28,017 nucleotides of DNA from a virus. Shown here one piece after another: positions 3,945-14,886 of the stretch. The stretch's first letter is position 1, and each line of letters begins with the position of its first letter. The translations under genes were made by a program, and so were the position numbers. Under the pieces are notes generated by a model, which made no database searches, had not been told where the DNA came from, and saw only the letters and a list, made by a program, of their open reading frames with translations. Where the stretch lies: the UHGV virus genome UHGV-0120697. One strand, given 5' to 3'.

Positions 3945-4262
3945 ATGAAACAAAATAAAGAAGACAAAATTCAATGCGACGCATTAGCTATTCTTGCTCA
4001 TCTCCAGGATTGCAAACTGGAAGAGGCGCTCCCCGTCGCTCTTGAACTAACCAGAACACTTGTTAGTGAAATTGACCCGGAACGCGACATCGGCACGTTT
4101 ACTGTTGCACTGGCGGCAAAGGCCCTGTTAACGGAACTCTCATCAACCCTTGATTCGCTTTTCGCCGAAATAGACGAGTTGCACGACCACATTGAAGAGC
4201 TGGAAATCCAGCTATCCCGCATCCGTCGCCAGAAACAGAACAGTGGGCGCAATGGCAATTAA
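3945..4262 (+). CDS. Hypothetical early protein (acidic, helical)
   Basis: ORF with an AAGGCGG RBS; no recognised domain. Confidence 0.5.
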   Translation: MKQNKEDKIQCDALAILAHLQDCKLEEALPVALELTRTLVSEIDPERDIGTFTVALAAKALLTELSSTLDSLFAEIDELHDHIEELEIQLSRIRRQKQNSGRNGN

Positions 4263-4455
4263 GCACTTTCCTGTCGTTCGTTTTACCTCCAGAGGACGTG
4301 AATACGAAGTCGACGAACGCCTGATTACCACAATCGACAAACACCGTTCAGAAAAGGATGCACACCACATCTACCTCACTGACGGCACTTACTTCTGCGC
4401 CACCAACGTGGTGCGGGTGAACCTTATCCGACAGGTACAGGAGTCATGCAGATGA
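4252..4455 (+). CDS. Hypothetical small protein
   Basis: Internal ATG at 4252 overlapping the upstream gene end by 11 nt (track ORF 4192). Confidence 0.4.
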   Translation: MAIKHFPVVRFTSRGREYEVDERLITTIDKHRSEKDAHHIYLTDGTYFCATNVVRVNLIRQVQESCR

Positions 4456-4697
4456 CCATTCTGGACTATATCGCCGCCAATCCGGGGTGTAGCGGTGGAG
4501 AAATCGCCGCAGCACTGAATACCCCAACCACAGCTATTAATGCGGAGTTACGCCGACTCTGGCGTAGCGGTTCAGTCATAAGAAAAGAGCGCAAAACAGG
4601 TGGTCGCTTCTCTTACCAGGTAAACCCGATGCCGTTCGGGTGCGGCAATCCACTTACCAATATGTTTAACCAGTTACTGAAGGAAGCCAGAGCATGA
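4452..4697 (+). CDS. Small winged-helix-like DNA-binding protein (putative)
   Basis: MTILDYIAANPGCSGGEIAAALN... resembles a wHTH recognition unit. CAGGAG RBS favours the ATG at 4452 over 4446. Confidence 0.4.
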   Translation: MTILDYIAANPGCSGGEIAAALNTPTTAINAELRRLWRSGSVIRKERKTGGRFSYQVNPMPFGCGNPLTNMFNQLLKEARA

Positions 4698-4990
4698 GCA
4701 TCATCAACCACCAGGAACTACGCGAACTGGCGACTGCCGTGCAAAGAATACCCCCCCGTGAATCACTACCATCTCGCGTGAGCTTACAACCGTCAGTGGT
4801 GTTGGCACTGCTGGATGAGTTGGAGCACGCCAGAACCACGGCCCCTGCCATTCGCCTGACACTCCATCATGAAATCGCTGATTTCTGCGCGACGTTGGAG
4901 GCGCCAGGCGAACCGGAAACGCCGGAAGCAATACAGCAAGAGCTGCTGCAACGCATTGACAAGGTTTTCGATTTTTTCCTTAACCAGTAA
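4694..4990 (+). CDS. Hypothetical early protein
   Basis: ATGA-coupled to the upstream gene; no recognised domain. Confidence 0.5.
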   Translation: MSIINHQELRELATAVQRIPPRESLPSRVSLQPSVVLALLDELEHARTTAPAIRLTLHHEIADFCATLEAPGEPETPEAIQQELLQRIDKVFDFFLNQ

Positions 4991-7073: not shown

Positions 7074-9896
7074 ATGACGGCAGAGTACATCAGGGACTGG
7101 CAACAACCGCGCCACGCAGTAGGACGTGAAGGAACGGAGATCCCCGCACCTGAATCCGCACTTTCCTCCTGGCTGGATGCCTACCGGGCAGAGAACGAAC
7201 GCCGCCAGGAAATGGCTGATGCGGCGTTCTCCGCCACACCGCTGGGCAACCTGATTAATAAAAGCCTGGACGCACAGGAAAAACAGGACAAAACCATCAC
7301 ACTGGCAGGAGACGCCAGAAAACGGGCACGCGGCGCGGTGGATGAAGCCATGGCCTCGCTGCGCCTGCTGCCGTCCTATCTGCGCGATCCGCTTATTCGC
7401 CACCTCTCCTTCCTGCGCAAAAAACAGGAAGCCGATCGCCGGAAAGGCAAAAAGAGCTGGCAGGCGGAACGCTATGCACGCGGAACCCTGCGCAAAATAT
7501 TCGAACGTCTGGATCGCACTGACAGACGCTGGCTGACACCGGGTTATCGCTCCCTTGCCGGACGCGAACGCCTGGACGATTTGCTTTACCTGCCGCAGCT
7601 CAACAAACACCAGATACAGACGCTGGCCACCATGACGGCGGCGATGTTCAGCAGCACCTTCGAAAAACTCTGCGATGGCTTTGGCGCGACTGATGGCGAA
7701 CTGACCATGGATGTAACGCTGAAGGCGTATCAGATGCTGGCCCGCATGGCGTTACACCTGCACGCCATGCCTCCACATTATGACGCACTGACAACAGACA
7801 AAGACCGGAGGAACGAACCGGACACGGAGCTGCTGCCGGGCGCAATCCTCCGCCTGACCTGTGCGGAATGGTGGAAACGCAAACTGTGGCTGTTACGTTG
7901 CGAGTGGAGAGAAGAACAACTCCGCGCCGCCTGTCTGGTTTCCAGAAAAACATCGCCCTATCTGAGCCAGGACGCGTTAAGCGAGTTTCGCGCACAGCGC
8001 GAGAAAACACGCGATTTCCTGAAAAGTTTCATGCTGGAAAATGAAGACGGGTTCACGATTGATCTCGAGACGGTGTATTACGCGGGAGTAAGTAACCCGG
8101 TTCACCGTAAGGCAGAAATGATGGCCACCATGAAGGGACTGGAACTTCTGGCCGAAGCCCGTAGCGACAGAGCGGTGTTTCTGACCGTCACCTGCCCGTC
8201 AAAATACCACGCAACAACGGAGAACGGTCATCCGAACCCCAAATGGAACGGGGCCACCATGCGCGACTCCAGCGATTACCTGGTTAACACGTTTTTTGCG
8301 GCAGTCCGCAAAAAACTGAACCGCGACGGCCTGCGCTGGTATGGCATCCGCACGGTGGAGCCTCACCATGACGGCACCGTGCACTGGCATATGATGGTCT
8401 TTGCTCATCCGGAAGAAATCGACAGCATCGTGGCCATCACCCGCGATATTGCCATTCAGGAAGATCGTCACGAACTGGGCGATGATATTACTCCGCGCTT
8501 TAAGGCGGAGTATGTCGACGGCTCAAAAGGCACACCAACCAGCTATATCGCGACCTACATCGGAAAAAACCTGGACAGCCGCGCCGTAGATGGCATCGAC
8601 CCGAAAACGGGCAAGCCACGCGTTGACCACGAAACCGGAAAATCAATGGCCGAGAGCGTGGAGCGCGCCATTGGCTGGGCGCGTCTTCATCGGGTCCGCC
8701 AGTTCCAGTTCTTTGGCATCCCCTCCCGTCAGGTATGGCGTGAACTCCGCCGCCTTGCCAGCCAGATGGCACGCAACCCGGAAGGCCCGCAACGGCTGAA
8801 GGATGATGCAATGGATGCGGTACTCGCTGCCGCTGATGCCGGGTGTTTTGCCTCCTACATTGAAAAACAGGGTGGCGTGCTTGTTCCACGCAAGGACTAC
8901 CTGATTCGCACCGCCTACGACCTCGCAGATGAGCTGAACGATTACGGCGAACAGAGCGTACAGATTTACGGGATCTGGTCACCACTCATCGGGGAATCCT
9001 CCCGTGTGTGCACGCATCCGGATAACTGGAAGTTGGTAAGACGTAAACCAGAACCAGAAGACAACGCCCGCGAAAATGGTTTTGACCTTCAGGGCGGCCA
9101 TGCCGCCCCTTGGACTCGTGGCAATAACTGTCCCCGTGTACAGGAAACGGACAACAACGGGACAGAACAGCCGGAAGAACGGCCAGCACCGTGGCCGCAG
9201 CTTCCTGACGGCGTTGACGTGAACGAATGGATGCGCTCACTGAAACGGCACGAACGCCGGGCGCTGATGCGTTCGCTTCGTGACAAACAGGCAAAAAACA
9301 GCAGTGATGAAATGCAGAGCTGGACACAGAGCCGCAAACAGCAGCGGCCTTTGCCTGATAACCACGAATTACTCGCTAAAGAATGGCGGGAATCTGCCGA
9401 ATCTCTCGGCCTGCATATCGGTGAACAGCAGATGCAGCACCTGTTACGGGGCGGCAGTCTGTACGTTGACGGCAGCATCATTGCACCGCAGGGATTTGAA
9501 ATTGTACGCAAACCGGATACCCGACCGGACAGCCGGATCACGCAGCTCTGGCAGCGCCTGAGCCGTAACCACGGCGTAAGCAGTACGGAGATCCGCCATA
9601 ACCCGGTCGCCAGCTATCTGGAACAGCTGAGGGCATCAGACCCCGAAGCCGCCGCACGCCTGGCATCCACACTTCAGCAAGACCAGAACACCATGAAAAC
9701 ACCCGTTACCGTGCTTTCTGACATGCTGCGCGCCATCCGCGACGCAGAGCACGCACAGAGAATCAGTGAAACCACTGAACGCGCCCGCCGCAAAGCAGAC
9801 CTGCTGCGGGGTGGCCTGACCAGTGGAAACAAAAAACAGACAGAAACGGGATTCACAAATCCCGTAAATGAGCAAAAAACGCGCCGCGATATATGA
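7074..9896 (+). CDS. A: Rolling-circle replication initiator, gpA family (HUH endonuclease)
   Basis: HUH motif (TVHWHMMVFAH) and paired active-site tyrosines (TSYIATYIGKN); position after the early operon as in P2. 940 aa, longer than P2 gpA (about 760 aa), with a C-terminal extension. Confidence 0.9.
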   Translation: MTAEYIRDWQQPRHAVGREGTEIPAPESALSSWLDAYRAENERRQEMADAAFSATPLGNLINKSLDAQEKQDKTITLAGDARKRARGAVDEAMASLRLLPSYLRDPLIRHLSFLRKKQEADRRKGKKSWQAERYARGTLRKIFERLDRTDRRWLTPGYRSLAGRERLDDLLYLPQLNKHQIQTLATMTAAMFSSTFEKLCDGFGATDGELTMDVTLKAYQMLARMALHLHAMPPHYDALTTDKDRRNEPDTELLPGAILRLTCAEWWKRKLWLLRCEWREEQLRAACLVSRKTSPYLSQDALSEFRAQREKTRDFLKSFMLENEDGFTIDLETVYYAGVSNPVHRKAEMMATMKGLELLAEARSDRAVFLTVTCPSKYHATTENGHPNPKWNGATMRDSSDYLVNTFFAAVRKKLNRDGLRWYGIRTVEPHHDGTVHWHMMVFAHPEEIDSIVAITRDIAIQEDRHELGDDITPRFKAEYVDGSKGTPTSYIATYIGKNLDSRAVDGIDPKTGKPRVDHETGKSMAESVERAIGWARLHRVRQFQFFGIPSRQVWRELRRLASQMARNPEGPQRLKDDAMDAVLAAADAGCFASYIEKQGGVLVPRKDYLIRTAYDLADELNDYGEQSVQIYGIWSPLIGESSRVCTHPDNWKLVRRKPEPEDNARENGFDLQGGHAAPWTRGNNCPRVQETDNNGTEQPEERPAPWPQLPDGVDVNEWMRSLKRHERRALMRSLRDKQAKNSSDEMQSWTQSRKQQRPLPDNHELLAKEWRESAESLGLHIGEQQMQHLLRGGSLYVDGSIIAPQGFEIVRKPDTRPDSRITQLWQRLSRNHGVSSTEIRHNPVASYLEQLRASDPEAAARLASTLQQDQNTMKTPVTVLSDMLRAIRDAEHAQRISETTERARRKADLLRGGLTSGNKKQTETGFTNPVNEQKTRRDI
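9846..9865. promoter_or_regulatory. 20-bp palindrome ACGGGATT-CACA-AATCCCGT (copy 1, inside the 3' end of A)
   Basis: Perfect 8-bp inverted arms; an identical-arm copy lies 73 bp downstream. Confidence 0.5.
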
Positions 9897-9918
9897 AGCG
9901 CGCATAAAACAGGCAAAA

Positions 9919-9938
9919 ACGGGATTTCAGAATCCCGT
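9919..9938. promoter_or_regulatory. 20-bp palindrome ACGGGATT-TCAG-AATCCCGT (copy 2, 35 bp upstream of the parM-like start)
   Basis: Same arms as copy 1; both copies preceded by AAAACAG and followed by AAA(T/C)GA; positioned as an operator or centromere-like site. Confidence 0.5.
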
Positions 9939-9972
9939 AAACGATTAATTAATCAACATAAGGAAAAGCGAC

Positions 9973-10932
9973 ATGAAAATTTGTATCGATGACGGCTCCA
10001 CCAACATCAAGCTGGCATGGACTGAGAACGGCGAACGCCGCAACGCCATCAGCCCGAACAGCTTCAAGTCGGAATGGTCTGCGCCGTTCGGTGGCACGCA
10101 GCCCGCGAACTACATGCTTGATGGCGTGCGCTATGGTTTTGATCCGGTCAGCGATCGCTTTGTCCAGACGACTGACACGCAATACCAGTACAGCGATGTG
10201 AATGTCATTGCCATTCATCACGCGCTGGTCAAATCAGGCATCACGCCACAGGAGGTGGATGTGGTTGTCACCCTGCCACTGAGCGAGTATTTCGACACAA
10301 ACGCACAGCCGGACATAGCCAACATCAACCGCAAAAAAGCGAACGTTATGCGCCCGGTGGAGTACCAGAACGGCGAAGCATTCACTATCCGTAACGTACG
10401 GGTTATGCCTGAATCCATTCCGGCTGGCTTTAAGGCACTGGCTGACATGAGTCCGTTTGAATCCCTGCTGATTGTGGATTTAGGCGGAACCACGCTGGAT
10501 GTGGCAAAGGTTCAGGGACAACTGGCAGGTATCAGCCAGGTGTTTTGCGATCCACACGTAGGCGTTTCCCTGATGGCCGATGCCGTACTGTCGGTGATGG
10601 CCACTAACGGTATGCGTACCAGTCACCACATCGCCAATACCATTATCGAACATCGCCATGATGAAGCCTGGCTGCGCCAGCACATCCACAATGACGCGCA
10701 TTACGCCAGCCTGATGGCGGTTATTCGTGAAAAGGAAGAAACACTGAAACAACGCGTGATCCGCGCGCTGGCGGGTTTTTCGGGTTACGGGCGGGTGATG
10801 GTTGTCGGTGGCGGGGCAGAGATTGTGGCACCCGCTATCCGCGAAGCCTGCGGAGTTAATGCGACTTTCATCGCGGACGGGGTGCCACAGTTTGCTCTGG
10901 TTAATGGGCTGTACGCAATGGGCAAGGAGTAA
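9973..10932 (+). CDS. parM: Actin-like segregation ATPase, ParM/StbA family
   Basis: Actin-fold motifs: phosphate-1 (IDDGSTNIKLAW), phosphate-2 (VDLGGTTLD), adenosine (VVGGGAEIVAP). N-terminus closely resembles plasmid R1 ParM as recalled from memory (not searched). Confidence 0.7.
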   Translation: MKICIDDGSTNIKLAWTENGERRNAISPNSFKSEWSAPFGGTQPANYMLDGVRYGFDPVSDRFVQTTDTQYQYSDVNVIAIHHALVKSGITPQEVDVVVTLPLSEYFDTNAQPDIANINRKKANVMRPVEYQNGEAFTIRNVRVMPESIPAGFKALADMSPFESLLIVDLGGTTLDVAKVQGQLAGISQVFCDPHVGVSLMADAVLSVMATNGMRTSHHIANTIIEHRHDEAWLRQHIHNDAHYASLMAVIREKEETLKQRVIRALAGFSGYGRVMVVGGGAEIVAPAIREACGVNATFIADGVPQFALVNGLYAMGKE

Positions 10933-10936
10933 ACCA

Positions 10937-11248
10937 ATGACGACACCAACCAGACGGATAAGTTTCTATCTGAAGCCCGCCGCCGTCAAGAACGAAGGCG
11001 AAGCATGCGCCTGGCTGGACAGCCTTACACCAGAAGCCCGCAAAAGTGGTCAACGCGTGGCTTTTCTGGCCGGGCTGGCACTACTGAAAATGAATCCGGC
11101 AGAGGCTTACCGACTGGCTGCATGGGCTGATGATGAGGCGTTATCAATGACACAAACCAGGACAGAACGCCCCGCGTCACAGCCAGTATCAGCCGCACAG
11201 ATAACCAGTCAGATGGCCGGAAATATCCGGGCGTTATTTCCCGAATAA
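10937..11248 (+). CDS. parR: ParR-like small DNA-binding adaptor (ribbon-helix-helix type)
   Basis: Directly downstream of the ParM-like gene with an AAGGAG RBS; N-terminal RRISFYLKP...LDSLTPEAR...AFLAGLALLKMNP and C-terminal NIRALFPE resemble R1 ParR as recalled from memory. Confidence 0.55.
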   Translation: MTTPTRRISFYLKPAAVKNEGEACAWLDSLTPEARKSGQRVAFLAGLALLKMNPAEAYRLAAWADDEALSMTQTRTERPASQPVSAAQITSQMAGNIRALFPE

Positions 11249-11253
11249 CACAA

Positions 11254-11277
11254 CATCAGGGCGCATCCGCCCTGATG
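11254..11277 (+). other. Perfect 10-bp-stem hairpin (CATCAGGGCG-CATC-CGCCCTGATG) between the parR-like gene and the next operon
   Basis: Read directly; no U-tract, so a processing, stability or protein-binding role is as likely as termination. Confidence 0.45.
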
Positions 11278-11311
11278 ACTTTAACCCGGGAGCATAAACA
11301 AGGGGGACACA

Positions 11312-11644
11312 ATGCAACACATTGACAGAGAAAAAGCGCAGCGACTGATTGAGCGGATGGAAGCGCTGGCGAAAGAAGAAAATGTCAACATCCAAAAAAT
11401 AGCTGAATGTGGCCAGATAGTTCTTCGTCGTGAAAAAGACCTCAAACAACTGATGTCTGGCGAAACCAGCAAAACATGGACTTCAGGCGAGAAGACGGTT
11501 TATTGCAGCTTCTGCAATAAATCCCAGTACGAAGTCACAAAGGTGATTGCCGGACCGTCTGTTTACATCTGCAATGAGTGCGTGGATTTGTGCAATGAAA
11601 TTATCAGGAAAGAAGTGACAGACAAAAAGGAAAAAAACGCATGA
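11312..11644 (+). CDS. Small protein with a ClpX-type C4 zinc-binding domain (host ClpX N-domain mimic)
   Basis: C-terminal [38 protein letters not shown] has the C-x2-C-x18-C-x2-C spacing and is near-identical to the E. coli ClpX N-terminal zinc-binding domain as recalled from memory. No AAA+ module follows. Confidence 0.6.
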
Positions 11645-11955
11645 ACAGAAAACAGAAACAAGAGTTGAAATACTTCTTACGTAAAGAAATTGCCAGGCTT
11701 GAAGATGCAGAGTCACAATCATCAGAAATTCCGTTCGGAATGGATATCAACGACGCCCGTATGCTCCAGGCATACCGCATAGCTCAGGCTGCACTACAGG
11801 CAAAACCGTCAGATGGACTGGTTAGAGCAGTACATTTCTATGAACAGGTAAAGCGTGAGAATCCGCCAGTCGAAACCGGAGCATGGAAAGACGCTGTTGA
11901 CTGGGTGCTCAAAGAGGCTTGCCAGTCTGTAAACATTGGCATCAAAGGAGAGTGA
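11641..11955 (+). CDS. Hypothetical protein (operon gene 2)
   Basis: ATGA-coupled to the upstream gene; ends ...IGIKGE with the stop inside a 17-bp repeat. Confidence 0.5.
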
Positions 11956-11957
11956 GA

Positions 11958-12449
11958 ATGCAAATTTCACCGGTTACTCTTCGTGTTGCGAAGGCGTTTA
12001 TATCCAGACATCACCGACACAATAAACCCCCGGTGGGGCATAAATTCAGCATTGGTCTGAGAAATGATGCCGGAGAATTGATAGGTGTGGCGACAGCCGG
12101 TAGACCTGTTGCACGACATTTGGACGATGGATTAACGCTTGAAGTAAATCGCACATGTACCACAGGAGAACGCAACGCTAACAGCGCGCTTTATGGTGCT
12201 GTCTGGCGGGCAGCAAAGGCTATGGGTTATCAACGTTGTATTACGTACACCCAGGCAGATGAATCAGGAGCATCTCTCCGCGCAGCTGGTTTTGTTCGTG
12301 TGAAAGAGCTTCCTCCAAGAAAAAGCTGGGCGGAATCAAGCGTCGCCCTGCGGAGTAAACGCGATCCGGTCGGAAACGGTGGTGTTCCTCGTGTGCTCTG
12401 GGAAATCAGGAGAATGAGTACCACTGGCATTCGCATCAAAGGAGAGTGA
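11958..12449 (+). CDS. Hypothetical protein (operon gene 3), basic/His-rich N-terminus; possible acyltransferase-like fold
   Basis: ATG 2 nt after the upstream stop; ends ...GIRIKGE with the stop inside the second copy of the 17-bp repeat. Fold assignment is a weak impression only. Confidence 0.45.
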   Translation: MQISPVTLRVAKAFISRHHRHNKPPVGHKFSIGLRNDAGELIGVATAGRPVARHLDDGLTLEVNRTCTTGERNANSALYGAVWRAAKAMGYQRCITYTQADESGASLRAAGFVRVKELPPRKSWAESSVALRSKRDPVGNGGVPRVLWEIRRMSTTGIRIKGE

Positions 12450-12450
12450 T

Positions 12451-12714
12451 ATGGCAACTTTGACAAAAAAAGAACAAGCATGGTTGAGCGAATTACAGGA
12501 CGTTCTTGATCGCTGTCCATCACCGAAAAAAATTGGTTTTTACACCATTGGCGATAAAAGCATTTACCTGTATGACCTGCGCCGCATGGATGAAATCATG
12601 GAGGCTCTTGATAATCGTTCGTCAATGGATTGGTGTGTTGCTGTCCATGATATGAATGCAGGGTTTGATGAAAAGATTTTGTTCCCCTCATCAGTTGAAA
12701 GCACAGCAGGATAA
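12451..12714 (+). CDS. Hypothetical small protein (operon gene 4)
   Basis: ATG 1 nt after the upstream stop; followed by a strong terminator. Confidence 0.5.
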   Translation: MATLTKKEQAWLSELQDVLDRCPSPKKIGFYTIGDKSIYLYDLRRMDEIMEALDNRSSMDWCVAVHDMNAGFDEKILFPSSVESTAG

Positions 12715-12750
12715 GGACCCAGCAAATATACACAACCTATAAAACACTAA

Positions 12751-12774
12751 AGCGCCTCAGGGGCGCTTTTTGTT
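12751..12774 (+). terminator. Rho-independent terminator (AGCGCC-TCAGG-GGCGCT + TTTTTGTT)
   Basis: GC-rich stem-loop with a U-tract 36 nt after the last operon stop. Confidence 0.65.
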
Positions 12775-12801
12775 TGCACAAAAGTGCACAAATTTGCACA
12801 A
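12775..12801. repeat. Three direct TGCACAA repeats at exact 10-bp phasing (12775, 12785, 12795)
   Basis: Read directly; helical-repeat spacing suggests a protein-binding array (iteron- or centromere-like, or a packaging-protein site). Confidence 0.55.
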
Positions 12802-13172
12802 TTTTTTTGAACGACTTTTTACCCTTCCGGCCCGCATGGCGGCTGGATCCGTCAAGGATCCGTGCGTGCACAAAAAAACGCGCTTTTTCTGCGCGCAGGT
12901 GACGGGGGAACAGCCCGCGTTTCAGGGGGTAAATAGCATTCCCTGAACGATGTCGCAGAGACACAACAGAATGGCCATATTTCTCACGCTGAGCATGAAA
13001 AAGGCGTGAGGGCTTTTGATTTGATGGGGTGAAAGGTAAGGCCGTCAAAATCGCACTGAGGCAGCGAGAACATACAGTCAACGCGGTGGAATTGCGTAAG
13101 AGTCTGACCGTCGATGGTGGCGATAAACTGGAAGGCGTCGTGAAATTATCTGATTGATACAGGAGCTGGAGA

Positions 13173-13201
13173 GCCGGGGCATAAATTTTTTATGCCCCGG
13201 C
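13173..13201. other. Near-perfect 29-bp palindrome GCCGGGGCATAAA-TTT-TTTATGCCCCGGC
   Basis: 13-bp perfect inverted arms read directly in the non-coding stretch between the accessory operon and the orphan gene; candidate protein-binding or cos-associated site. Confidence 0.4.
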
Positions 13202-13300
13202 GAAGCAGCAGACAAGCGAAGCGCGTCAGCGATACGGCACCTTGCCGACCATACTTCATAAGTGCAAAATACGAGCAAAGAAATCAATGGAGGCTGTCTT

Positions 13301-13825
13301 ATGGTCATTAATTACAAGCAGTTAAGAGAAAAACGGGAGCAGGTAAAGGAGAGCTTTCGCCGCAATGAAGATCTGACCCCGCTTGTACGCCTTGCCCAGG
13401 GCATTGTTGATGCTTATGAAATCTCGCTGGAGCTGCCATCACAGACCTGGACAGATAGCGACGGTAATCGCCAGCATTACGTTTCATGCGGACTGGAAGC
13501 AGCCGAAGGATTTCGCAGAATGCCTTTATCCCAGATCCCTGCCGCTACCCCCAAAGCACGGGGCAGCAATGATGAGCGAAAACTGACTTTTAGTATTGAA
13601 ACGGTGGTTGACGACACACCTGGCGAAGTCGCGTTCGTGCACACGCCTGTTTCGATCGCAATGTATAACGATGAAATACAGGTTCGCGTTAATAATAATA
13701 TCGTGCCACTTAAAGAAGGTAATTCACCCTACACCACCGTTTGTGAAGCCATTCAATATTACGTTCTCTCTGAAATTGATAATCTCAAGCCTGACGGCAC
13801 CCAGAAAATGGTTCAACTCTGGTAA
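13301..13825 (+). CDS. Hypothetical protein (orphan gene next to the portal gene)
   Basis: ATG at 13301 preceded by GGAGG (track start 13262 is a GTG); ends at a bidirectional terminator; no recognised domain. Confidence 0.5.
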   Translation: MVINYKQLREKREQVKESFRRNEDLTPLVRLAQGIVDAYEISLELPSQTWTDSDGNRQHYVSCGLEAAEGFRRMPLSQIPAATPKARGSNDERKLTFSIETVVDDTPGEVAFVHTPVSIAMYNDEIQVRVNNNIVPLKEGNSPYTTVCEAIQYYVLSEIDNLKPDGTQKMVQLW

Positions 13826-13831
13826 AAAGGA

Positions 13832-13856
13832 CAGCCCCATCACGGGGCTGTTTTTT
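13832..13856. terminator. Bidirectional intrinsic terminator (CAGCCCC-ATCAC-GGGGCTG) shared by the orphan gene (+) and portal gene Q (-)
   Basis: Stem-loop with T6 on the plus strand and a T-rich tract on the minus strand; the Q stop codon lies in the loop. Confidence 0.55.
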
Positions 13857-14886
13857 CATCAAGAAGAGCATAAGAGTTAAAACGGATCACCTCTTCGCCA
13901 AGCCAGTCATTGATGTGCTTCATAGCCTCCATGACGGGCATCAGCTCGTTAATTGCGTAAACCCGCGCTGCCTTCTCCACATCGCCAAACGCACTTTTTT
14001 CGCCCGGCATCGCCCCCATCAGTTGCGGCGGAACGCGGTGCGCAGCCAGCACATCATCACGGGATGCCGCCTTAACATTCATGAATTCATCTTTTGCGGT
14101 GATCTGCTGGAACGGCAAAATTTGCACCCCCTCTTTGCCCCCGTTGGGCGCATGAATGAGCACGTTTTTAAACGCACCACCACCACGTGCCCCCTGTAGC
14201 GTTTCTTTCAGGGAGTCCATGCTTTCGCGGTTTACCTGCGCTGCACCGATGTAGATGATGCACCCGGCGTGGGATCCGTTGTCGTAGTACAGTTTTCTGA
14301 ACATGTCCGCCGAATGAGAAAGGCTGGCCGAGAGTAATGCGCCAAGATATTCCGGCATGCCGTAGATTTCCTGGTTAATATCCGGATTCATCAGGTGGCA
14401 CACTTTGCCAGGACGAAACTGAAACGCGTCCTTGCCATCCTGCACATACCACCATGATTCAAGATCGCTTCCGCGTCGCATGTATTTCGCCAGGGCGTGC
14501 CGTAATTTAAGCGGTTCGCCGAGCATATTGCTTCGAAGCTCAAGGAATGCGTTACCGAACACAAACCAGTCCAGCGCCAGCGCCGAGAAATCCTGCCGGG
14601 AAAGCAGCGGGTGCGGGATGTAGCAACCGAGTAATACATTGCGCTTAAAGTAAAGCGCAGACTGATGCCAGGACGTTTGCCGGGCTGCTCTTGCCAGACC
14701 GTACCAGTCCACCGGGGTTTCATACCACCGCCCGTTATCAGCACAGTACATATTGTCCAGCAGGTCATGCCCGGTCAGGCGATAAGGACCATCAAATGTG
14801 AATGCACTGAGCGATGATTCTTTCCTGAGCGCATCAGCGAGATCAATGCGTGAACTCATGCGCACTTTTTTATTTTTTCTGCTCAT
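13840..14886 (-). CDS. Q: Portal protein, P2 gpQ-like
   Basis: About 348 aa, size and position match P2 gpQ; downstream of and overlapping the terminase gene on the same strand. Confidence 0.9.
   Translation of the reverse strand: MSRKNKKVRMSSRIDLADALRKESSLSAFTFDGPYRLTGHDLLDNMYCADNGRWYETPVDWYGLARAARQTSWHQSALYFKRNVLLGCYIPHPLLSRQDFSALALDWFVFGNAFLELRSNMLGEPLKLRHALAKYMRRGSDLESWWYVQDGKDAFQFRPGKVCHLMNPDINQEIYGMPEYLGALLSASLSHSADMFRKLYYDNGSHAGCIIYIGAAQVNRESMDSLKETLQGARGGGAFKNVLIHAPNGGKEGVQILPFQQITAKDEFMNVKAASRDDVLAAHRVPPQLMGAMPGEKSAFGDVEKAARVYAINELMPVMEAMKHINDWLGEEVIRFNSYALLDEKTAP

Follow-up and report, generated by a model that had tools for sequence, protein, structure and literature searches.

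We analyzed a small gene in a P2-like E. coli phage of the P88 type (genus Xuanwuvirus), the virus genome UHGV-0120697, which was examined as a single stretch of 28,017 nucleotides (nt), referred to here as the window. The gene, at positions 11312 to 11644 on the plus strand, encodes a protein of 110 amino acids (aa) in which a genuine ClpX-type zinc-binding domain (ZBD) stands alone on the phage, behind a helical hairpin and a flexible linker. Our proposal for its function is that the free phage ZBD would be an in-trans competitor for the ligands of the ClpX ZBD and would damp the branch of ClpXP proteolysis that depends on adaptors and on the ZBD; we regard this as a serious possibility, with the balance of probability somewhat against it. 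The gene is made up of the following parts.

11312–11644, plus strand: gene for the hairpin and ClpX-type ZBD protein (110 aa, ATG start)
11300–11307, plus strand: Shine-Dalgarno-like sequence AAGGGGGA, ending 4 nt 5' of the ATG (read from the sequence)
11327–11455, plus strand: N-terminal helical hairpin, residues 6–48, as predicted by AlphaFold 2 (AF2), with a predicted local distance difference test score (pLDDT) of about 85–95
11456–11494, plus strand: flexible linker, residues 49–61 (low pLDDT, fast-evolving, varying in length)
11495–11614, plus strand: ClpX-type zinc-binding domain, residues 62–101 (Zn ligands C65, C68, C87, and C90)

The stop codon of the gene and the start codon of the one that follows overlap (ATGA). 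Escherichia phage PhiR44_2 is 100% identical to the window over positions 9900 to 13900, and phage P88 is about 97% identical, in parts; the protein has counterparts in PhiR44_2 (XSB42704, identical) and in P88 (gp19, 96% identical). At 43.5%, the G+C content of the gene is low relative to the 53% of the window, which is typical of accessory genes.

A ClpX-type zinc-binding domain without an ATPase

The first-pass annotation of this stretch had described a C-x2-C-x18-C-x2-C spacing and a relationship to the ClpX N-terminal domain. Both descriptions held. The open reading frame (ORF) and the pattern C65-x2-C68-x18-C87-x2-C90 were read from the translation, and all four cysteines are invariant across the family. 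The Pfam model PF06689 (zf-C4_ClpX) matched residues 64 to 99, corresponding to profile positions 2 to 38 of 39, with 64.7 bits (expectation value [E] 6.8e-18; gathering score, 27 bits). A phmmer search of the PDB sequences returned the E. coli ClpX ZBD first (1OVX and 2DS5 to 2DS8; E 7e-20 to 2.5e-19) and aligned phage residues 53 to 104 with ClpX residues 9 to 60. Over the 38-residue core, 31 positions (82%) are identical to E. coli ClpX; this is a strong match, and the term "near-identical" used for it earlier was a slight overstatement. The same 38 residues had been called C-terminal, and they do lie at the C-terminal end of the protein, but a charged tail of 9 residues follows the ZBD before the stop codon.

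The NCBIfam ClpX models (TIGR00382 / NF003745) scored the protein at 51 bits and were matched at model positions 6 to 54 only. Because the ClpX equivalog cut-off of these models is 370.75 bits, and only the first ~50 model positions were covered, we conclude that the AAA+ module is absent, as had been stated. The protein is therefore not a ClpX unfoldase: it has 110 aa and no AAA+ module, and its ZBD is C-terminal rather than N-terminal before an ATPase.

An AF2 model built on a 19-sequence alignment had a mean pLDDT of 80 and showed helices at residues 6 to 22 and 27 to 48, a disordered linker at residues 52 to 59, and then the ZBD. When this model was compared with the PDB using Foldseek, the best matches were 2DS5, 2DS6, and 2DS8, with a root-mean-square deviation (rmsd) of 0.7–1.0 Å, a template modeling (TM) score for the target of 0.87–0.91, and a probability of 1.00; it superposed at 0.7–0.8 Å on 2DS5 and on 2DS8, the complex of the ZBD with the XB peptide. 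The phage domain thus has, by this model, the fold of the solved ZBD, with two short strands and a C-terminal helix around the zinc. The positions equivalent to two residues of the ClpX docking patch are also retained: F67 corresponds to ClpX F16 and is found in 17 of the 18 distinct cores of the family, and position 97 (I97 here), which corresponds to ClpX I46, is I or V.

In PHROG, the protein gave a full-length match to phrog_6797 (E 2.1e-58; residues 1 to 106 corresponding to profile positions 5 to 107 of 107), a family annotated as function unknown. RefSeq names the protein "ClpX C4-type zinc finger protein"; older records use the name "carboxylate--amine ligase", in some cases with a note naming ClpX. 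The domain assignment is already public, through this RefSeq name and through a supplementary table of PMC9122126; what we put forward beyond it is hypothesis.

Distribution, conservation, and origin of the family

A sensitive blastn search with the gene matched 221 of 5426 complete E. coli genomes (about 4%), UTI89 among them, and never matched clpX itself. Full-length intact copies were found in more than 100 genomes, and the plasmids and phages with full-length matches were those of Escherichia, Salmonella, and Shigella. When one genome was taken for each bacterial species, neither of two scans yielded a family member. The family, whose P2-like prophages carry ParM/ParR, falls into two subfamilies. 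Subfamily A includes the gene in this window, P88, and many E. coli chromosomes, and it retains all of the ClpX-invariant positions from K27 to N45 except for the conservative change L28V. Subfamily B is carried by phage-plasmids of the D6/P1-like and p09EL50-like kinds and by some P2-like prophages, and its proteins start with MTTSHSAIT. Between the subfamilies, synonymous sites in the hairpin are saturated, and the ratio of nonsynonymous to synonymous substitution rates (dN/dS) for the ZBD is approximately 0.25–0.4. Because of this ratio, we conclude that selection preserves the ClpX-like surface.

The gene had been described as a copy of the host's ClpX domain. As a statement about a recent event, this proved incorrect. 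A codon alignment of the ZBD region with E. coli clpX showed 62% nucleotide identity. Codons agreed at only 12 of the 32 identical residues, and third positions at 17 of 47, which is near random. These values, together with the failure of blastn to match clpX, led us to reject a recent capture from E. coli clpX. A special likeness to the host protein was rejected as well, since the phage core has 31 of 38 residues in common with E. coli ClpX and 28 to 31 of 38 with other bacterial ClpX proteins. True ClpX orthologs share 28 to 36 of these 38 residues with E. coli ClpX, which places the subfamily A core at the edge of the ortholog range despite saturated synonymous sites. On these values, the domain is an old or foreign capture, held near the ClpX consensus by selection.

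Some copies are disrupted. The copies P0010, P0018, and P0122 are frameshifted or truncated. In two IMG/VR contigs (L011, positions 4001 to 4849, and L030, positions 3965 to 4822), a subfamily B gene has a frameshift inside its zinc finger and runs on, as a fusion, into a downstream Ea22-like ORF, giving products of 282–285 aa. These fusions are instances of occasional decay or remodeling of the gene.

On phage-plasmids, the members are embedded in ead/Ea22-like gene arrays of the early accessory regions, and the D6 copy is near icd, ant, ref, and ppp. No conserved partner gene was found, as the neighbors differ among the P88-like prophages, the D6-like elements, and the p09EL50-like elements. 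Because the immediate neighbors are not conserved between contexts, the gene has no obligate partner gene; the idea of a conserved partner was rejected, with only mosaic joints and one 87-aa gene recurring.

The N-terminal hairpin and the linker

The N-terminus had been described as helical and unrelated to ClpX, and this was borne out: AF2 predicts a hairpin of helices 6 to 22 and 27 to 48, in which E17, E23, and R40 are invariant in the family. A HMMER search with the N-terminal 58 aa alone against 1.84e9 representative proteins gave 11 matches. Of these, nine were members of the family or fragments of them; a tenth, to a long repetitive protein, was weak, and the remaining one was left uninspected. 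The same search found the hairpin in no other architecture, and, because it matched essentially its own family, the hairpin and the ZBD can be regarded as a fixed pair. The pLDDT of the linker falls below 50 at residues 52 to 59, and in 10 of 13 informative pairs its dN/dS is close to or greater than 1; insertions and deletions also occur.

A proposed competitor for ligands of the ClpX ZBD

ClpXP controls sigma-S, components of the SOS response, flagellar regulators, several antitoxins, and some phage proteins (lambda O and MuA), and much of this control goes through the ZBD. The ClpX ZBD dimer docks SspB, RssB, trigger factor, and lambda O via a hydrophobic patch that includes F16 and I46, and without the ZBD, lambda O escapes degradation (PMC7804408). 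Isolated ZBD added to wild-type ClpXP inhibits, in vitro, the breakdown of sigma-S that RssB mediates (Micevski et al. 2020; PMC7226468).

By analogy with that isolated domain, the role suggested in the first-pass annotation, that of a decoy or dominant-negative modulator of ClpXP serving anti-defense or host takeover, is plausible. We infer ligand binding, inhibition of ClpXP, and a benefit to the phage, as follows. Free phage ZBD would bind the ligands of the ClpX ZBD in trans and compete with ClpX for them. Adaptor- and ZBD-dependent proteolysis would then be slowed, and substrates recognized by the pore would be largely unaffected. The hairpin might provide oligomerization, with avidity for dimeric adaptors, or a second specificity. 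The phage could benefit if, for example, a phage or host protein were stabilized in early development or in the lysogen.

The match of sequence and predicted fold to the ClpX ZBD, the ClpX-invariant positions kept in subfamily A, the position of its core at the edge of the range of true orthologs, the low dN/dS of the ZBD between the subfamilies, and the retained docking patch are all consistent with a competitor of this kind. The genomic contexts also favor it: the gene lies in early or accessory regions with many host-modulating genes, namely the ea22-like arrays of phage-plasmids and, in this window, the gpA-gpQ hotspot beside a Mom-like gene. Its recurrence in 221 of 5426 complete E. coli genomes points the same way.

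Several observations weigh against the competitor proposal. Various members of subfamily B have replaced residues that are invariant in ClpX (P32 by D, E, or N; S33 by A, D, or N; Y35 by F; L43 by A, V, or D; and D42 by K or E) while retaining the Zn ligands and the core. The changes at P32, S33, and L43 weaken the case for strict mimicry, and because such invariant residues have changed, exact mimicry of the ClpX surface is evidently not needed for the role of the family. Within subfamily B, the dN/dS of the ZBD was high in several pairs, but these are noisy values from short sequences. High expression is required of a stoichiometric competitor, and a consensus scan of the intergenic region between parR and the ZBD gene (11248 to 11312) found no sigma-70-like promoter; transcription of the gene probably continues from upstream. 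Foldseek searches of the PDB and BFVD returned nothing informative for the hairpin, so that neither relatives nor structural analogs to account for its role were detected. Finally, we found no functional study in the literature of a phage or stand-alone ZBD or of the P88/PhiR44 protein.

If the proposal is correct, a phage ZBD would be a simple natural tool that turns off the adaptor- and ZBD-dependent branch of ClpXP and no other. Phages and phage-plasmids could use it to act on host stress responses, their own replication proteins, or protease-dependent defenses, and "receptor-domain capture" would be added to the means by which phages are known to manipulate proteolysis in the host. As the gene is in about 4% of complete E. 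coli genomes, including UTI89, and on p09EL50, a phage-plasmid of O104:H4, consequences for host physiology could be of relevance in clinical lineages. A bolder version, which we consider doubtful, is that temperate phages and phage-plasmids of the Enterobacteriaceae have turned the ClpX receptor domain to their own use, as a diffusible "receptor decoy" that reprograms the substrate choice of ClpXP, with the hairpin adding avidity or a second target. Such a decoy might stabilize a phage replication or regulatory protein or RpoS, or might disarm defense or toxin-antitoxin systems that rely on turnover by ClpXP; among natural inhibitors of bacterial AAA+ proteases, it would be the first to be made from a captured piece of the protease.

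Comparison with known systems

The phage domain resembles the E. coli ClpX ZBD in its C4 ligands and their spacing, in 31 of 38 core residues, in its predicted fold (rmsd 0.7 Å), and in the patch equivalent to F16 and I46. It differs in lacking the AAA+ ATPase, the pore loops, and the IGF loop, in placing the ZBD at the C-terminus behind a novel hairpin, and in being encoded by phages and phage-plasmids, with 62% nucleotide identity to E. coli clpX. The recombinant ClpX ZBD is likewise a free ZBD without an ATPase, and its inhibition of sigma-S degradation is, by analogy, the activity we propose here (PMC7226468); that ZBD is a laboratory construct of the host protein, whereas the phage protein is the product of a natural gene, with seven substitutions in the core and an extra domain.

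The proposed outcome, in which delivery by an adaptor to ClpXP would be blocked and sigma-S stabilized, is like that of the anti-adaptors IraD, IraM, and IraP (PMC7226468; PMC6546054). Unlike these anti-adaptors, which have unrelated folds and bind RssB, the phage protein would imitate the receptor side, the docking domain of ClpX. The Pfam, NCBIfam, and PHROG scans revealed no homology to IraD, IraM, IraP, lambda CIII, T4 PinA, or T7 Gp4.5. They matched only ZBD and ClpX models, plus NAF below threshold, and for this reason the protein cannot be assigned to any of those anti-adaptor or protease-inhibitor families.

Lambda CIII inhibits FtsH, and T4 PinA and T7 Gp4.5 inhibit Lon. If inhibitory, the phage ZBD protein would resemble them as a small early phage protein that damps an ATP-dependent host protease, either protecting phage proteins or neutralizing protease-dependent defenses. 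It differs from them in the protease concerned and in its unrelated sequence, and none of the three is known to be a captured domain of its target.

Other ZBD-only proteins of phages (phrog_12435, phrog_5259, and those of PP9W2 and ST846-OXA48phi9.2) are similar in lacking an ATPase, in belonging to temperate phages, and in their early or replication-proximal location; they differ in lacking the hairpin and in diverging more from ClpX (22 of 38 for PP9W2). The protein of Pseudomonas phage PP9W2 is a 65-aa "Clp protease" encoded after dnaB. In Klebsiella phage ST846-OXA48phi9.2, a lambdoid phage, we observed an unannotated 73-aa ORF for a ClpX-type zinc finger (MK416022.1, 13044 to 13265; contig L038, 2501 to 2722). 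It lies between cII and the replication initiator gene, where the record annotates a minus-strand ORF.

Alternative explanations

The strongest alternative, unlikely in our judgment but by no means far-fetched, is that the ZBD fold is used as a generic zinc-ribbon module for dimerization or protein binding, with a partner outside the ClpX network, and that the likeness to ClpX reflects ancestry. Conceivable partners are a phage protein, an Ea22-like neighbor, or a host factor bound by the hairpin. The pattern in subfamily B, with altered ClpX-invariant surface positions and intact Zn ligands and core, is what such a module would show. Stand-alone or differently fused ZBDs also occur in many unrelated settings, including the 136-aa actinobacterial proteins P0098 and P0071, the PP9W2 protein, the Klebsiella phage ORF, phrog_12435, and phrog_5259, and the family is almost always found beside ead/Ea22-like genes. 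However, subfamily A lies within or at the edge of the divergence of ClpX orthologs over the whole 38-residue core, beyond the structural positions, and the immediate neighbors are not conserved, which argues against an obligate partner gene.

A second alternative, which we consider improbable, makes the protein a recruiter. The hairpin would bind a target, and the ZBD would heterodimerize with the ClpX ZBD or bridge to an adaptor, so that ClpXP would be redirected or the protein would serve as an extra specificity module of ClpX. Two domains joined by a flexible, fast-evolving linker do resemble a tethering adaptor, and the helix residues that heterodimer formation would call for, invariant in ClpX, are intact in subfamily A. 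Because the hairpin is conserved, including E17, E23, and R40, and is exclusive to the family, it is expected to have a role of its own. Exchange of the phage ZBD into ClpX nevertheless seems unlikely, because the ZBDs of ClpX pair with one another in cis, where the hexamer keeps their local concentration high, and free ZBD homodimerizes. Crosslinked ZBD dimers have been demonstrated (PMC7226468).

The third alternative retains the decoy activity of the ZBD and changes its purpose: in the lysogen, it would serve the prophage to exclude superinfecting phages that require ClpX. Transposable phages of the Mu type require ClpX, with dependence on its ZBD, to remodel the MuA transpososome. In P2-like phages, the usual content of the gpA-gpQ hotspot is anti-phage systems, for example old and tin (PMC9122126; PMC13586616), and the gene follows parM-parR, which may have its own promoter near palindromic repeats at 9830 to 9944, so that expression in the lysogen could follow. 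We nevertheless rate exclusion as quite improbable. PADLOC-DB v2, with its models of known and candidate defense systems, gave no match for any of five cassette proteins; phage-plasmids carry the family too, in early regions of the ea22 type that are not classical defense islands; and the Mom-like DNA-modification gene of the cassette points to counter-defense. Finally, the disrupted and fused copies described above would fit a decaying, nonfunctional fragment of a captured clpX 5' end, but this explanation is barely credible in view of the intact copies in more than 100 genomes, the good ribosome binding site, the confident model of the hairpin, and the conservation of both domains in two subfamilies despite saturated synonymous divergence.

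Genomic context

The neighboring features, in order along the window, are listed here.

7074–9896: replication gene A, before parM
9973–10932: parM (StbA_N and ParM C-terminal domain, E 1e-68 to 4e-82)
Ending at 11248: parR/stbB (Plasmid_stab_B)
11254–11277, no strand assigned: left hairpin with a perfect 10-bp stem, CATCAGGGCG-CATC-CGCCCTGATG, between parR/stbB and the ZBD gene, with no T-run on the plus strand
11641–11955, plus strand: 104-aa gene (phrog_26213 and phrog_660, families of unknown function), conserved in P88 and not conserved in the other contexts
11958–12449, plus strand: Mom-like/XF1762-family gene (NF045478, E 6e-61; phrog_1384, "Mom-like DNA modification protein")
12451–12714, plus strand: 87-aa gene (phrog_1714), the last of the cassette
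12749–12769, no strand assigned: right hairpin, AAAGCGCC..GGCGCTTT, with a T-run, resembling a bidirectional terminator
13840–14886, minus strand: portal gene Q, beyond further small ORFs

The ZBD gene thus lies between A and Q, in the gpA-gpQ interval, which is a hotspot of diversity and defense in P2-like phages (PMC9122126). Homology with most of the P2-like prophages that carry parM-parR ends at about 11274 and resumes at about 12750. Because of these two breaks, the four genes between the two hairpins can be considered one variable cassette with the ZBD gene first, in agreement with the earlier description of it as the first gene of an accessory group in the A-Q region. The location had also been taken to fit an anti-defense role; gpA-gpQ is, however, best known for defense encoded by prophages (PMC9122126). 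About one-quarter of P2-like phages have a putative partition system in this interval, and Rousset et al. (2022) suggested that prophages with such ParM/ParR systems might be kept as plasmids (PMC9122126). The supplementary table of the same paper lists, by Pfam label, the arrangement "StbA + Plasmid_stab_B + zf-C4_ClpX + hypothetical"; we found no test of this arrangement in the paper.

Within the cassette, the Mom-like gene, whose start was taken as in the PhiR44_2 annotation and whose match to Pfam Mom was just under threshold, may from its sequence have an anti-restriction function in DNA modification. The 87-aa gene product is 94% identical to that of the p09EL50 gene located two downstream of the ZBD homolog, with a 173-aa gene between them.

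The A homolog is a replication endonuclease of 940 aa with a long, charged, low-complexity C-terminal extension; we take it to be considerably longer than P2 gpA. The ParM and ParR/StbB genes (9973 to 11248) form a complete partition pair inside a P2-like phage, and parM-parR was present in 1307 of the 5426 complete E. coli genomes, nearly always on the chromosome. Two 42-nt direct repeats (9830 to 9871 and 9903 to 9944), 81% identical and 73 nt apart, straddle the stop codon of A directly 5' of parM, and each contains the palindrome ACGGGATT-N4-AATCCCGT. The repeats are candidates for a parC-like centromere or a ParR operator, and possibly the promoter region, of the ParM/ParR system.

Three unrelated genes share ends of the form "...G(I/R)IKGE*": the 104-aa ORF (11935 to 11955), the Mom-like ORF (12426 to 12449), and the 173-aa ORF of p09EL50 (L005, 4798 to 4821). 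Each of these ends is directly followed by the ATG of the next gene, and they look like conserved recombination joints at which small accessory genes are shuffled.

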